Shown: piece by piece, positions 12,001-18,000 of the stretch
Layout: each line of letters opens with the position of its first letter
Numbering within the stretch: position 1 is the stretch's first letter
From: Armatimonadota bacterium
Lineage (GTDB): Bacteria > Armatimonadota > Hebobacteria > CAIYQO01
NCBI GenBank assembly: GCA_038248345.1
Contig: JBBRXO010000046.1
Span: 1 to 21,840, forward strand
DNA: 21,840 nucleotides
Direction of reading: 5' to 3'
Position numbers: made by a program

Positions 12001-15000
12001 AACGAGGTACTGCCCCCGCTGGTGTTGCGTACCGATAATGAAGCGTCCCGTCGCCACCCGTTGGCGATATATATGCCGTTAGAGACGCTGGCGCGTACCC
12101 CGCGCAATGTCGCCGTTTTTCGTATCCGCGATGGGAGAGAATCGGTGATTGCCAATCTGCAACCGAATTGGCTGCCCTTCTCGTTACTCGATTCGCAGGT
12201 AGCGCAATTGCCCAACGTGAAGATTGGCAGCTATCGCGTCGTGGTAACCACTAATCGCGGGAATACCCAGATGAACGCTACTGTGGATACGTATGGTGGG
12301 GCGGCAATTCCGTAGTATTTACTCCAATTTAAGGCTCACCATATACCATGATGAATAACAACAACCAGACGCCGGAGATGGCGCTAGAGAGCCTGGCGGA
12401 GCAGATTCGCGCCTGCCGTAATTGTGACCTGGCGCGAGGACGCACCCAGGCGGTGCCGGGTGAGGGCAACGTGCGCGCGGAGATTATGTTCATCGGAGAG
12501 GCCCCGGGGAAGAAGGAGGATGAGTTGGGCCATCCTTTCATCGGGCCTTCGGGCAAGTTCCTCACCAGCATGATCGAAGATATCGGGTTGCGGCGTGAGG
12601 ATGTCTTCATCGGTAATGTCATCCGTTGCCGCCCCCCGGAGAACCGCGATCCGCAAGCGAATGAAATCGCCGCCTGCCGCGGCTGGCTCCACGCCCAGCT
12701 GCAAATAATCCAACCACGGGTGGTCTGCACCCTGGGACGCTTTGCGATGAATACCCTGATCGACCCGGATATGTTGATCGGGCAGGCGCACGGCATCCCG
12801 GTAGAGAAAGACGGTGTGCTTTTCATCCCCCTTTATCATCCGGCGGCGGCACTACACCAGGCGAAATTACGCGACACGTTGATTGCTGACATGCGCCAGG
12901 TACGAGTGGAACTGCAGGCGCGCGGTTTGTGGGGCAAGCGGTAGTGATAAAAAGCAGGGAGTCCCGGAAGGAATTTTACGCATCACTCTGCGTTTTTTTG
13001 CTTATGAGCCAACATGCTCCCTCTTCTCTCTCACTCGGAATGTATCGGACTTATTGTCTGCACTTATATCCGCCATACTTCCTCCAGTGAGTATCGGGGC
13101 TAACATGCCTTCCGGGCTCTCCCGTAAACCTATAATACCCCCACGCCACGGGCAGCGTGTTGGATTTATGCTACATTTTTCGGCGTTGTTGGTTTTTTGC
13201 CGGGATGTAGTTGGATATTATGGCGAAATCGGGGACGAGCCAATGCGGAGATTGGCGCTCCCAGGAGACATCCATTCACCGAACACCCCATTGACCATTC
13301 GGTATTCTTCTGGTATTATTCGGTATCGGTAATTGTGCCGGTCTGTTTTTCCGAGGAGGTGCTGCTATGTCGGATACAATTATACGACGTACAGGATTAC
13401 TTGAGGCACTGCGGCGTAGAAACCTGAGCCAGGCGAAGTTCGCCCGCGCGCTGGAGTGCAGTCCGGGGTATCTCTCGGAATTGCTGCAGGGACGCTACCA
13501 GCCCAGCGCCGAGCTACGCGAGCGTATGTTGACGGTACTCAATGACCCCCAGCTGTATGGGGAGCTGCCCACGGTGAAGTGGGACTATATCTTTACTGCG
13601 GCCGAGGCGATTCCCGGCGGAAAGGAGAACACGATCATGATGGACACTATTAAAATTTTCGACACTACGCTGCGTGACGGCGAGCAATCGCCGGGCGCGA
13701 GCATGAACATTGAAGAGAAGCTGGAGGTGGCACGGCAACTGGCACGCCTGGGCGTCGACGTCATTGAGGCGGGATTCCCCATCTCCTCTGACCGCGACTT
13801 TGAGGCGGTGCAGATGATCGCCCGTGAAGTGAAAGGCCCGATCATCGCCGGCCTCTGCCGCGCAGGCGAGAAGGATATTCGCCGCGCCTACGAAGCGGTG
13901 AAGGATGCCGAACGCAAACGTATCCACACCTTTATCGCCACCAGCGACATCCATATGGAGCACAAGCTGCGCAAGACGCGCGCTGAAGTGCTGCAAATGG
14001 CCACTGACGCGGTGAAGCTGGCGTGCTCACTGGTAGATGACGTGGAGTTCTCCGCCGAAGACGCCACCCGCAGCGATGTCGACTTCCTCTGCCAGGTGGT
14101 GGAGGCGGTCATCGACGCCGGGGCGACTACCGTGAACATCCCCGATACCGTCGGCTACACTACGCCGGAAGAGTTCGGCGCGCTCATCGCCGCTATCCGC
14201 ACCCGCGTGCCGAATATCGACAAGGCGATTATCAGCGTGCATTGCCACAACGACCTGGGGCTGGCTGTGGCCAACTCGCTGGCGGCAGTGCGCAACGGCG
14301 CCGGGCAGGTGGAATGTACCATAAACGGCCTGGGCGAGCGCGCGGGCAATGCCGCGCTGGAAGAAGTGGTGATGGCCATGCGCACCCGGCCCGATGTGTT
14401 CCCGGCGAAAAATGGCATCAATACCAAGGAGCTGATGCGCACTAGCCGGCTGGTGAGCGACGTAACCAGCATCCACGTACAGCCGAACAAGGCCATCGTG
14501 GGGGCCAACGCCTTCAGCCACGAGGCGGGCATCCACCAGCACGGTATGCTGGCGAACAAGCTCACCTATGAGATCATGTCTCCCGAAGACGTGGGCGCCG
14601 GCGAGAGCAAACTGGTGCTGGGCATCCACAGCGGCAAGCACGCCATCATCCGCAAACTGGCGGAGATGGGCTACGAGCTGGATGATAGCCAGTTCGACAA
14701 GGTAGTACAGCGCGTGAAGGAGATCGCCAGCAAGAAGAAGGAAGTGACCGAGCGTGACCTGGAGTCAATCGTCAGCGACGAGATCACCCTGGTGAGCAAA
14801 CGCTTTGAACTCGACTACTTCCATGTGGTGTGCGGATCCAACATGCAGCCCTCCGCCACCGTGCGGCTGATCTGCAACGGGGAGACAGTCACCGAGGCGG
14901 GTATCGGCGTCGGGTCAGTGGATGCCGTCTACCATACCATCGACCAGGTTGCGCAGTTGCCGCATAACCTGGTGGACTACGTGGTGCACAGCGTCACCGG

Positions 15001-18000
15001 TGGCACCGACGCGCTGGCCGATGTGAGTGTGCGCATCAGCGATGCGGAGAACGGGCGGATATTCACCGGTCGCGGCGCCAGCACCGACATAATAGACGCC
15101 AGCGCCAAGGCCTACGTGCAAGCCCTCAACCGCCTGTCCGGCCACTCCCAGGGCTTCAGCCCGCAGGGGAATGAGAGTATCTGAGGGGTGGGAAACCACA
15201 AAAAGATACGACCCCGGGAATAATACTCCCGGGGTCGCGCCTATCAGGAAGCCTTTTTCCGCGCGAGCACTTCTCGCTGCAATTCCTGCAATTCTCGGCC
15301 ACTTTCTTCCCAGAATATCAATTGCTCTTCACGCGTCATGCCTGCCAATAATGCCTGCACGCTTTCGGCACCCTTATGCTTCATTTCTACGCAATCAAAG
15401 TCCTTCTTCATGCTTTATCACCTCGCTTTGAAGATTATCCGCCACGAAGTGGCATGTGTTGCTAGCTACGGGGCGTACATGCACTTTCAGGGTGATTTAC
15501 TACCAGCTTGTGAGTTATTGGTAGTAAATCGCCCCAGGTAAACTTTTACGGCGTCACCGGCTTATTGGCAACCGGGAGGTAGTTTTGTGTCGCGGTTAGT
15601 TTGTTGACATTCTTATCATATGGCCCGGTATACAAGCGGATGACGGCTTTTTTGTCGCTCATTCGTTTGAAGGTAACCGTGGGGATATTCGATTCGGGCA
15701 TGAAGGGGGAGGTGGGGAATATCTCTGTTTCGTCCTCTCCTGCTTTTTCCAGTGTCACCCGCACGAATACTTGCGCAGCTGGCCCCTGGCCTTCATCTTT
15801 GACTCTATATTTGAACGTATCCGTGATCTCGTATGGCTTATCTTCCGGCGGCGGCGGCGGTGCAATTACCGGGTCTTCCATCGCTATGACGATTGTTAGT
15901 TTGTCCTTGAAGCCCAGCGGCGTTTTTACCGGTGGTTCTGTGCGGGTGATGGTATCCTTCGGCAGGGTGGAAATCTCTTTCTTTACCTCGATAGTCCCGG
16001 TATATTTCATATCCGTCAGCACCTTGCGCGCTTCCTCCTCCCCCTTGCCGGTGAAGTCGGGGATGATCAGACTTTCGGTAGGAGCCGGGCCTTTGCTGAC
16101 GGTGAAACGCACCGTGGAGCCAGCATCTATATCCGTGCCGGAGTTGGGGCTCTGGCGGAAAACGATGCCTTTGGGTGTGGTTTCGCTGTACTCTTCCTCG
16201 GCTTCGCCGTTGAGCTGATTTAATTTGAGCAGGCTTATCGCCCTATCCTTCGTCAAGTTATCGACACAGAGGTTGGGCACATTCTGCGCTAGAGCGGGGC
16301 GGTTGTTGCCGCCCGGTGGTCGCATTAAAATATAGGTAGCGCCGATGACGAACAGGCCCAGCATGACGAAGAGCGAGACGATAAGCCAGCCATTATTGCT
16401 CGGTGGTTCCTGGTAGGGCGGCGCGGGGGCGCGGCGCGGGGCGGAGACCGGCTCCGGGGCCGGGGCTGCGGCCGCCGCAGGCTTGCGGTAGATCATCGTG
16501 GCATCGGGAGGCGTCATGGCAGTGCGTTGAATGACCACCGTCTCATCTTGATGCAGCTCTTTTTTTACCCGTTCCAGCGCCGCTGCGACATCGGCGGCGG
16601 ACTGGTAGCGGTTGCGCGGCTCTTTCTCCAGGCACCTCATGATGATATGTTCGATTGCGGCGGGTATCTTGGGGCGAATCTGCCGCGGCGGGATTGCCTT
16701 CTCATAGATCTGTTTATGCGCTACGGCTATCCCACCTTCGCCCTCGAACATGGTGCGTCCGGTGAACATCTCGAAGAGTACTGCCCCTAATGAATAGATA
16801 TCGGAGAGCGGGGTGGTGTTCTCCCCGCGCGCCTGCTCCGGCGACAGGTAATGTACCGAGCCGACAATGACGCCGGTGTCATCGCCCTCGGAGACCTGCT
16901 TGGCGATGCCGAAGTCGGTGACTTTTATTTTGCCGTCGGTGGTGATGAGGATGTTATGCGGCTTGATGTCGCGGTGAACCAGCCCGCCCTTGTGCGCGGC
17001 GGCGATGGCGGCGGCGATTTGCCGCCCGAACTCCACAGCAGTAGCCAGCGGCAACGGGCCTTCGCGGCGCAACCGCTGCTTCATGTCCTCGCCTTCGACA
17101 TATTCCATCACGATATAGTAGTTGCCATCTGCCTGGCCGGTATCGTAGATCAGGCGGATATTCTCGTGTGACACCTTAGCGGAGGAGCGCACTTCGCGCA
17201 GGAAGCGCTCGATGAAAGCCGGGTCGCTGGCAAATTGCTCGCGCATCATCTTCACCGCTACTACGCGGTCGATGAGGTTGTCATGCGCCTTGTAAGTGAC
17301 GCCCATGCCCCCCTCGCCCACCGGCCCATCCAATATATAGCGATCATTCAGCGTCCGTTGAGTCATACGCACATTATTCCTTAGCTTAAGATACATACTG
17401 AGCATACCGCTGGATTTGTCAGGTGTCAAATAGATATGGATTTGAGAGGGTGATTTAGGCGATTATCATGATGGGACTAAAGTCCCGGCTGCGTGGCGCT
17501 GCGCGCCGATCGTCCGCCTACGCGGACTTGTTTAGGGGCAGAAAAGTCCGCACAGGCGGACGACTGGCATTTTAATGCCACGCAGCCAGGATTTCAATCC
17601 CAGCGAAAAATTGGCTTTGCGATTACTCCCTTGCAACTAGGAACTATAAACCAGGAACTCAATACCCCCCCAGCAACCCCTTCATCTTTGCACTCTTCTC
17701 GGCTAGATGAAAGAGGTAGGCGCCTAGCAGGAAGTAGGCGATGCCGTTGGCCAGGCTGACGGCGAACTGCAGCGGGTCGAAGGGGGCGTGGTTGATGGCC
17801 AGGGCGCGGATCATACCGGCGCCGGGCATCATGGGGAGGAAGTGGGTGGCGATGCGCCAGTTGCCCTCCCAGTCCTCTACCGGGGTCATCACCAGGAAGA
17901 GCAAAACGAACTGCATTAGTTGGATAAGGTTCATGATGCGCTTGAAGATGAGGGTGAGGCCGCCCATGACGTAGCCCAGCCCGTAGGTGGCGAGCATGAC

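Follow-up and report, generated by a model that had tools for sequence, protein, structure and literature searches.

The locus described here raises the question of why an enzyme of leucine synthesis, 2-isopropylmalate synthase (LeuA), should begin with a helix-turn-helix (HTH) domain, and what such a domain would regulate. The gene lies within a 21,840-nucleotide stretch of an Armatimonadota genome (contig JBBRXO010000046.1, positions 1 to 21,840; the window), and the genome-wide survey's note had proposed that it encodes a self-repressing, leucine-sensing trigger enzyme. Comparison among relatives supports the self-repressing part of this proposal, through a selected fusion, a conserved candidate operator over the gene's own promoter, a single target, and a conserved internal ribosome binding site and start codon; the leucine-sensing part stands less firmly. 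In particular, it is very probable that the fusion represses its own gene, the chances are evenly balanced that a ligand of the enzyme part controls DNA binding, and leucine is a tentative choice for that ligand.

An HTH domain on a complete LeuA

The fusion gene (13367..15184, + strand) encodes 605 amino acids behind a ribosome binding site for the full-length protein (GAGGAGG, 13353..13359, +). It is apparently monocistronic, its neighbouring genes varying among relatives, and a 14-pair, terminator-like hairpin follows its stop codon (15208..15238) with the T run on the minus strand. As the survey's note had stated, an XRE/Cro-C1-type HTH domain (residues 1-78, 13367..13600, +) precedes a complete enzyme: Pfam HTH_31 matches residues 11-58 with 35.1 bits (cut-off 27) and HTH_3 matches residues 13-58 with 25.1 (cut-off 23), and behind them lie the HMGL-like catalytic barrel (residues 95-363, 13649..14455, +), the accessory subdomain HCS_D2 (residues 377-458, 14495..14740, +), which contains several family-specific fixed residues, and the allosteric, leucine-binding dimerisation domain LeuA_dimer (residues 459-590, 14741..15136, +; PF08502, E 4e-39).

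The protein scores 740.5 with TIGR00973 leuA_bact (cut-off 598.7) and stays under the thresholds of the models for citramalate synthase and homocitrate synthase. A single further HMGL-like gene was found in the genome, and its score marks it as a citramalate synthase. Residues R103, D104, E106, H292 and H294 are conserved in 28 of 28 fused proteins, and we take the motifs RD-x-E and H-x-H to be the catalytic and metal-binding motifs of LeuA. The fused LeuA is 57-58% identical to the Neisseria enzyme (3RMJ) and shares the barrel, accessory subdomains and regulatory domain of the Neisseria and Mycobacterium isopropylmalate synthases (IPMS; TIGR00973), differing from an ordinary bacterial LeuA by a 90-residue N-terminal extension that bears the HTH.

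The predicted structure of the HTH domain (pLDDT 86.9) resembles CylR2, ImmR and phage repressor domains. Its best structural matches all have the lambda-repressor-like fold (Z up to 8.8, rmsd 1.7, 63 residues); ImmR aligns with a VIA Z of 8.3 (rmsd 2.0, 63 aligned) and CylR2 with a TM of 0.68 and a Foldseek E of 0.006, no Foldseek match reaching E 0.001 or better. Mean identity is 81% over HTH residues 6-60 and 87% over residues 20-47, compared with 83% over the barrel, and the helix-turn-helix stretch is the best-conserved portion of the domain. Moreover, dN/dS ranges from 0 to 0.105 in eight of nine pairs, the ninth being saturated; by these sequence comparisons, the HTH is under purifying selection.

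Distribution of the fusion

The fusion is confined to one Armatimonadota family. The HTH profile matches in 10 of the 11 relatives from the family but in none of the 19 other genomes of the class, and in the 11th relative the contig begins partway through the tail of the HTH, whose reading frame continues into the enzyme, which bears out the earlier count of HTH and enzyme in one frame. Fusions occur in 26 protein clusters from several sources. The survey's note had further counted all 26 database matches to the HTH region as fusions, which is correct for proteins of 332-1059 aa, to which that search was confined; stand-alone HTH proteins could not appear in it because of this length limit, and a more sensitive profile does reveal distant stand-alone relatives. 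A search of shorter proteins returned four matches, in each of which the HTH continues into the first part of LeuA and a truncation or frameshift comes later, and a search of longer proteins with the HTH region returned none. The Atlas, which contains large clusters only, holds ordinary LeuA and ordinary small HTH clusters and none that combines both; a 50%-identity library does not show the fusions, probably because a plain LeuA stands for them; and a phage collection gave a single weak match. The counts of fusions and operators are not independent, because all family members share one origin.

A candidate operator over the fusion's own promoter

A predicted sigma-70-type promoter precedes the gene, with a -35 box TTGACC (13291..13296, +) and a -10 box TATTAT (13314..13319, +) that together match at 10 of 12 positions across a 17-base spacer; the -35 box is conserved in 23 promoters, and the -10 box is supported by both promoter prediction and comparison. 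Three copies of TTCGGT surround these boxes. The first candidate half-site is an inverted copy upstream of the -35 box (13278..13283, - strand), absent from the survey's note and present in 20 of 23 distinct promoters with position shifts of at most 3 bases. The second lies within the promoter spacer (13298..13303, +) and the third overlaps the last T of the -10 box (13319..13324, +), each in 22 of the 23 promoters. The direct pair had been noted as TTCGGT-N16-TTCGGT; the spacing is N15, so that the third half-site begins 21 bases after the second. This period of 21 is maintained even where the spacer between the -35 and -10 boxes is 18 bases, and columns T, T, C, G and T of the second half-site are invariant across the 21 promoters with a 17-base spacer. 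Both direct half-sites occur together in 21 of 23 promoters.

Within a genome, the operator pair nearly always occurs once. Here, TTGAC-N17-TAnnnT has 197 matches, and only the leuA promoter has both half-sites; it also has the highest matrix score in the genome (26.2, followed by 22.9) under a scoring matrix whose training set excluded this promoter and a near copy of it, in agreement with the earlier statement that the genome has no second such promoter site. In this genome, none of leuB, the leuC-like genes, ilvB and cimA is preceded by the paired site, nor is ilvC at 10 loci of the family, as the survey's note had reported for other leu/ilv promoters. The full pattern precedes the fused leuA in 10 of 12 family genomes and appears in 0 of 19 other genomes of the class. 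Outside the class, it matches in 33 of 370 genomes; these matches are background because a reversed control is similarly frequent (about 30 of 401), and the five that were inspected have no HTH of this type nearby. Two extra matches within the family (G011:C53 and G002:C8) have no -10 box.

Most leaders have only about 30 bases between the -10 box and the start codon and are too short for an attenuator; Rfam gives nothing up to E 1 within 12700-15700 and nothing at the gathering score in 19 unfused loci.

These sites could instead serve another factor, with the XRE-like domain having a structural or partner-binding role. XRE-fold domains have a structural role within the enzymes HppE, HEPD, MPnS and cyanase, which match the HTH model at Z 6.4-8.0. 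Further, the half-site layout is atypical for XRE dimers: PMC12565409 describes XRE proteins as usually binding palindromes as dimers, whereas the candidate operator combines an inverted pair, whose spacing varies, with a direct pair of period 21 and forms no compact palindrome. Against this, motif and HTH co-occur solely in this family, the motif sits at the fused gene's own promoter, a conserved operator-like feature that distinguishes HTH-LeuA from those four enzymes, conservation within the domain peaks at the helix-turn-helix stretch, and its nearest relatives are stand-alone regulators. A structural or partner-binding domain, with the repeats serving another factor, is a very unlikely explanation.

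The linker and an internal start codon

The HTH is joined to the barrel by a variable linker (residues 79-94, 13601..13648, +) with 27% mean identity and low model confidence (pLDDT about 43). All 21 distinct linkers are in frame and free of stop codons, in six lengths (66, 69, 72, 75, 78 and 87 nt). The linker here contains a ribosome binding site AAGGAG (13622..13627, +) and an internal ATG (Met91, 13637..13639, +), the predicted start of an HTH-less LeuA. The internal start reported in the survey's note for this genome and two relatives is kept widely: 20 of the 21 linkers have an ATG or GTG lying 5-9 codons ahead of the FDTT motif.

Good internal ribosome binding sites and starts in most loci would also be expected of two functionally separate genes, or of an assembly artefact, with incidental read-through and nearly all of the enzyme made from the internal ATG. 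If a stop codon interrupted the linker, two functional genes would still result, but the 21 linkers contain no such stop, which argues that the fusion is selected. In addition, locus L032 has lost the internal start and retained the fusion, at 14 of 19 loci the 5′ ribosome binding site outscores its internal counterpart, and the fusion recurs in the 26 clusters from several sources, leaving the two-gene or artefact account scarcely credible. On the reading of a selected fusion, the internal start would provide an HTH-less enzyme from the same message and dilute the repressor form.

Origin of the fused gene

At all 19 unfused loci leuA lies behind ilvC; at the 20 fused loci it never does, standing alone instead with its own promoter. 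In the tree, a branch with support of 100/100 separates the fused enzymes from the rest; the tree and the residue comparison took nine unfused proteins, and the remaining 10 unfused loci, the sister family among them, were left out because their motif reads RDAEQ.

The closest stand-alone relatives of the HTH lie in the Cro position of mobile-element switches; they are distant (E 1e-8 to 1e-13) and encoded by genes of 70-95 aa. Of six in the phylum, five face a larger XRE repressor, and a contig end cuts off the view for the last. Four are followed by primase-type genes and two by M78 peptidases. These distant relatives thus have the Cro-position layout (stand-alone, divergent from a CI-like repressor, before replication genes) and the fused leuA does not, and TTCGGT occurs in none of the five of their promoters that were searched. 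HTH-LeuA shares its fold with the small XRE/Cro-C1 regulators of mobile elements (CylR2, ImmR, phage CI domains) and differs from them in being chromosomally fixed as a domain of a housekeeping enzyme.

Together, the contrast in ilvC linkage and the Cro-position relatives suggest that leuA likely left its operon and acquired a captured repressor and promoter. By this scheme, a single event would have moved leuA out of an ilvC-leuA operon and placed it under the small Cro-position repressor gene and promoter of a mobile element, and the internal start would most simply be the ancestral leuA start retained from that operon. Both the state before (the ilvC-leuA operon) and the state after (stand-alone and HTH-fused) are seen, which makes this a traceable case of trigger-enzyme origin.

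Relation to known enzyme-regulators

Trigger enzymes with a fused DNA-binding domain include BirA, NadR, PutA and RbkR (PMC5397151; PMC8249747). PutA binds its own promoter region only and responds to its substrate (PMC8249747), and RbkR combines a kinase with a winged HTH and responds to its co-substrate CTP; its regulons were identified by comparing genomes, as the HTH-LeuA operator was here (PMC5397151). Similar to these, HTH-LeuA has an N-terminal DNA-binding domain on an intact metabolic enzyme in one polypeptide, as read from its sequence, and a conserved candidate site at a gene of its own pathway, namely its own promoter (21 of 23) and no other leu/ilv gene checked. Unlike them, its enzyme belongs to the DRE-TIM Claisen condensing enzymes and acts in branched-chain amino-acid synthesis, its candidate operator has three widely spaced half-sites (two direct, one inverted), its conserved internal start would yield an HTH-less form, and its DNA binding and effector are predicted. 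Few enzyme-repressor fusions are described; the literature searched contained no DNA-binding LeuA, as the survey's note had also found, and no such fusion for branched-chain amino-acid synthesis.

Which signal would control DNA binding

As a mechanism, each LeuA dimer would carry a pair of flexibly tethered HTH domains, able in principle to reach across the direct repeat of 21 bases and to the inverted copy with its looser spacing; HTH binding across the -35/-10 region would block RNA polymerase, and leucine, as a stiffener of IPMS dimers, would favour the DNA-bound state. With the site missing before the other leucine genes checked, leucine would control just one gene, which counts against its role as the signal. 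The whole of this account, in which HTH-LeuA binds the three TTCGGT-like sites and represses its own transcription in a leucine-dependent way through the enzyme dimer, is given slightly less than an even chance. A more elaborate version is rather unlikely: the domain would be a domesticated Cro-type repressor of a phage satellite, the dimer a leucine-stiffened ruler that sets its two tethered HTH domains on half-sites separated by two turns of DNA, and the nested start codon would fix how much repressor-enzyme is made relative to plain enzyme, an arrangement taking the place of operon-level control over leucine synthesis across the whole bacterial family.

The equipment for leucine allostery is largely in place. 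The equivalents of Neisseria His297, Tyr313, Asp144, Glu236, Arg77 and Arg35, named in PMC9860122, are conserved in 28 of 28 fused proteins, as are G514, G516, D519, T547 and R556 of the regulatory domain. The Neisseria allosteric network is changed at two residues: Arg32 corresponds to E120, which is also E in six of nine unfused relatives, and in place of Lys332 stands I420. The fused clade has thirteen fixed enzyme positions whose residues are rare among the nine unfused relatives, and six of these fall in the linker and accessory region, the route of leucine allostery.

The enzyme may merely supply dimerisation, with the HTH binding the same sites; the circuit would then count LeuA protein and ignore metabolites. 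All of the fusion and operator evidence fits such plain negative autoregulation equally well, as do the single target, the variable linker, by which the HTH is attached to the N-terminus of the barrel with the leucine site in a C-terminal domain at the opposite chain end, and the descent of the HTH from small regulators without a sensor domain. Moreover, leucine stiffens the Neisseria IPMS dimer with its overall shape unchanged, its size and shape by SAXS being the same (PMC9860122). The precedents speak against it, being enzyme-regulators whose state, in PutA and RbkR, follows substrate or cofactor, as do the 13 clade-fixed positions, six of them along the allosteric route, which may also be mere clade marks. 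Plain autoregulation is on balance doubtful, and a serious competitor to leucine control.

A second option is that ketoisovalerate, acetyl-CoA or isopropylmalate, sensed at the active site, switches DNA binding. The HTH is attached directly to the catalytic barrel, in which R143, L218, L222, R309 and L322 are fixed in the fused clade, and the responses of PutA to substrate and RbkR to CTP offer parallels. The leucine-binding domain, however, is intact. End-product control is the usual logic for a committed biosynthetic step, which also counts against active-site sensing and leaves it improbable.

If leucine controls binding, HTH-LeuA would sense leucine through a single gene and a defined operator, could serve as a biosensor, and would be a case for testing whether IPMS allostery, which is purely dynamic, is able to drive a second output. 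Should binding be indifferent to ligands, it would still be a neat autoregulatory fusion, of lower interest. Two further candidate marks of the fused family were rejected: the GVGSVD regulatory motif, where unfused relatives vary too, and H392, which five of nine unfused relatives share.

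The HTH-LeuA fusion and its conservation

A single 605-aa open reading frame at positions 13367-15184 encodes HTH-LeuA. As the genome-wide survey's note had proposed, an XRE helix-turn-helix (HTH) precedes a full LeuA: residues 11-58 match HTH_31 and HTH_3 in Pfam, each above cut-off, followed by HMGL-like, HCS_D2 and LeuA_dimer domains, and NCBIfam assigns the enzyme part to bacterial LeuA (score 740.5 versus a cut-off of 598.7). It is the only LeuA found in the genome, because the second HMGL-like gene scores as citramalate synthase. Structural comparison of the predicted HTH fold likens it to CylR2, ImmR and CI domains. 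Both Pfam labels are already attached to HTH-LeuA proteins in databases, and those relatives that carry names are from Armatimonadota.

Six family members were used to build an HTH profile, which finds 10 of 11 family relatives, 6 further genomes among the 401 searched in the phylum, and none of the 19 other class genomes; in the 11th relative the contig is cut within the HTH tail, in frame with the enzyme. The survey's counts for an HTH and enzyme in one frame are thereby reproduced. The 21 distinct linkers, whose six lengths are each divisible by three, run stop-free from the HTH into the enzyme; 25 DNA loci from genomes and metagenomes were entered, and one duplicate, one locus ending within the linker, L050 and L045 were left out of the count. 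The L050 linker was missed by the motif, yet is in frame on separate inspection. Across 27 proteins, mean identity is 81% in the HTH (residues 6-60), 27% in the linker, 83% in the barrel and 71% in the regulatory domain, and the dN/dS of the HTH lies between 0 and 0.105 in 8 of 9 pairs. Judged by these comparisons, the fusion is real and under selection. The earlier report that 26 of 26 database hits are fusions came from a length-limited search; searches for shorter and longer proteins added four truncated or frameshifted fusions and no other hit. L045 (positions 18-353) joins an HTH of the family, 79% identical over residues 5-52, in frame to other sequence on a 1143-base contig; that sequence resembles the end of FliG, a flagellar protein, and the join is probably an assembly chimera.

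A predicted operator confined to leuA

A sigma-70-type promoter is predicted at 13291-13319 on the forward strand, where TTCGGT copies start at 13298 (half-site 2, in the spacer) and 13319 (half-site 3, overlapping the -10 box), separated by N15 and not N16 as first given; an inverted copy lies at 13278, on the reverse strand. Among 23 distinct promoters (29 loci, six duplicates dropped), which include near copies, half-sites 2 and 3 each occur in 22, the pair in 21, and 20 have an inverted copy ahead of the -35 box. Two promoters from a single genus have an 18-base spacer between -35 and -10, yet they keep the repeat period of 21 and have a further copy on the downstream side of the -10 box instead; the spacing of the repeats is thus set relative to each other and not to the -35 box. 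The promoters of L044 and L055 have up to four half-sites in tandem, repeating every 10-11 bases, with the final one immediately 5′ of the ribosome-binding site, and lack the upstream inverted copy.

Within the genome, this operator has the highest matrix score and is the sole site with both half-sites among 197 promoter-like matches, which upholds the earlier claim of no second such promoter. The complete pattern precedes fused leuA in 10 of 12 family genomes (in the other two, the promoter is off the contig or the pattern is a variant), is found in none of the 19 other class genomes, and occurs at background frequency elsewhere in the phylum. The earlier caveat that other leu/ilv promoters lack the site also holds: the paired site is missing upstream of leuB, the two aconitase-family genes, ilvB and cimA in this genome, and upstream of ilvC at 10 family loci. 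The predicted regulon of HTH-LeuA is one gene.

A predicted internal start within the message

The internal Shine-Dalgarno (SD) sequence and start codon, noted earlier here and in two relatives, extend across the family: 20 of 21 linkers have an ATG or GTG placed 5-9 codons ahead of the FDTT motif of the enzyme and preceded by AGGAG, GGAG, AGGA, GAGG or GGGG. The SD-like sequence is kept but codes for different residues (KE, QE, EE, ME, LE, KD), which points to a constraint acting on RNA. Start sites were scored with a generic anti-Shine-Dalgarno word. At 11 of 19 loci, no more than one other in-frame ATG/GTG within the enzyme scores as well as the internal site; at 7 the internal site ranks in the middle, and L032 has none. 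The 5′ ribosome-binding site scores higher than the internal one at 14 of the 19. Because of the conserved start and these scores, the leuA message likely yields two predicted products, fused and HTH-less. L032 (1524-3341, protein P0012) has no internal ATG/GTG and would make the fused form alone, a natural control. Downstream, a 55-aa reading frame (15244-15411, reverse strand) without a Pfam match converges with leuA and shares a hairpin at 15208-15238.

Origin of the fusion

A fully supported branch (100/100) separates 28 fused enzymes from 9 unfused ones. Every one of the 19 unfused leuA loci fetched (from 26 non-family genomes that gave a match) has ilvC immediately upstream, against 0 of 20 fused loci, whose neighbours differ among relatives. 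Six stand-alone HTH relatives occur in the phylum as genes of 75-95 aa; five face a bigger XRE repressor, primase-type genes come after four, and in two an M78 peptidase stands behind the repressor. This placement is the Cro position in mobile-element switches. Further, among 1.84 billion representatives the best single-stretch matches are mostly HTH proteins of 70-100 aa, and PHROGs matches are phage regulators. The fusion was probably built from a mobile-element repressor; in the simplest history, leuA left its operon with its own ribosome-binding site and landed behind a Cro-type gene and promoter. The stand-alone relatives are only distantly related, and the TTCGGT motif is absent from their promoters.

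Six Armatimonadota genomes (L068-L073) carry mobile-element switch modules made up of an XRE repressor with a peptidase-like neighbour, a divergent small HTH, a small reading frame and a primase-type gene; the L072 module adjoins a tsaD-like gene. In the genome carrying the window, leuB, leuC-like genes, ilvBN, ilvC and cimA lie on six contigs (C32, C153, C69, C9, C2, C38), so the ilv-leu operon is dispersed. At seven family loci (L096-L102), a conserved GCAGGAC ... GAA about 60-80 bases upstream of ilvC resembles a SigH-like alternative-sigma promoter; three loci of one genus share another conserved motif upstream of ilvC.

Probable autoregulation and possible leucine sensing

An HTH bound over the -35/-10 region would repress the leuA promoter, and HTH-LeuA very probably represses its own gene. 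PMC12565409 describes XRE regulators as often autoregulatory dimers on palindromes. Plain autoregulation is the first rival to leucine sensing; leucine sensing itself has somewhat less than an even chance. Coupling is argued for most strongly by the persistence of the fusion, even though an internal start would allow a split form to function; this shows that the HTH needs the enzyme, whether to dimerise or to sense. According to PMC9860122, isopropylmalate synthase (IPMS) is a domain-swapped dimer with its leucine site in the C-terminal domain, and leucine inhibits it by stiffening the accessory domains, with the overall SAXS shape unchanged. Aligned through 3RMJ, six Neisseria network residues are kept in 28 of 28 fused proteins and the equivalents of Arg32, Asp304 and Lys332 are not; Asp433, Thr461 and Arg470, matched by spacing alone to D519, T547 and R556, are invariant. 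The fused clade has thirteen fixed positions whose residues are rare in the 9 unfused proteins; given a single origin and an outgroup of only 9 proteins, they cannot be distinguished from clade marks.

BirA, NadR, PutA and RbkR are the enzyme-regulator fusions described in PMC5397151 and PMC8249747, and the layout of HTH-LeuA is like that of PutA and NadR. HTH-LeuA is a variation on the trigger-enzyme design and a candidate for a ligand-controlled trigger enzyme. Full-text searches of literature with few subscription papers turned up no HTH-fused or DNA-binding LeuA, as the survey had stated, though a domain-architecture table may mention one; passages of PMC10464499 contain nothing further on DNA binding. 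HTH-LeuA is, from its sequences, a real, family-wide fusion with its own predicted operator.

Elsewhere in the window, tandem anti-anti-sigma (STAS), anti-sigma (HATPase_c_2) and sigma factor genes at 1499-3158 form a partner-switching module, and a 1037-aa protein at 9202-12315, predicted to be exported and with only weak, carboxypeptidase-regulatory-like Pfam matches, adjoins an upstream VWA protein.
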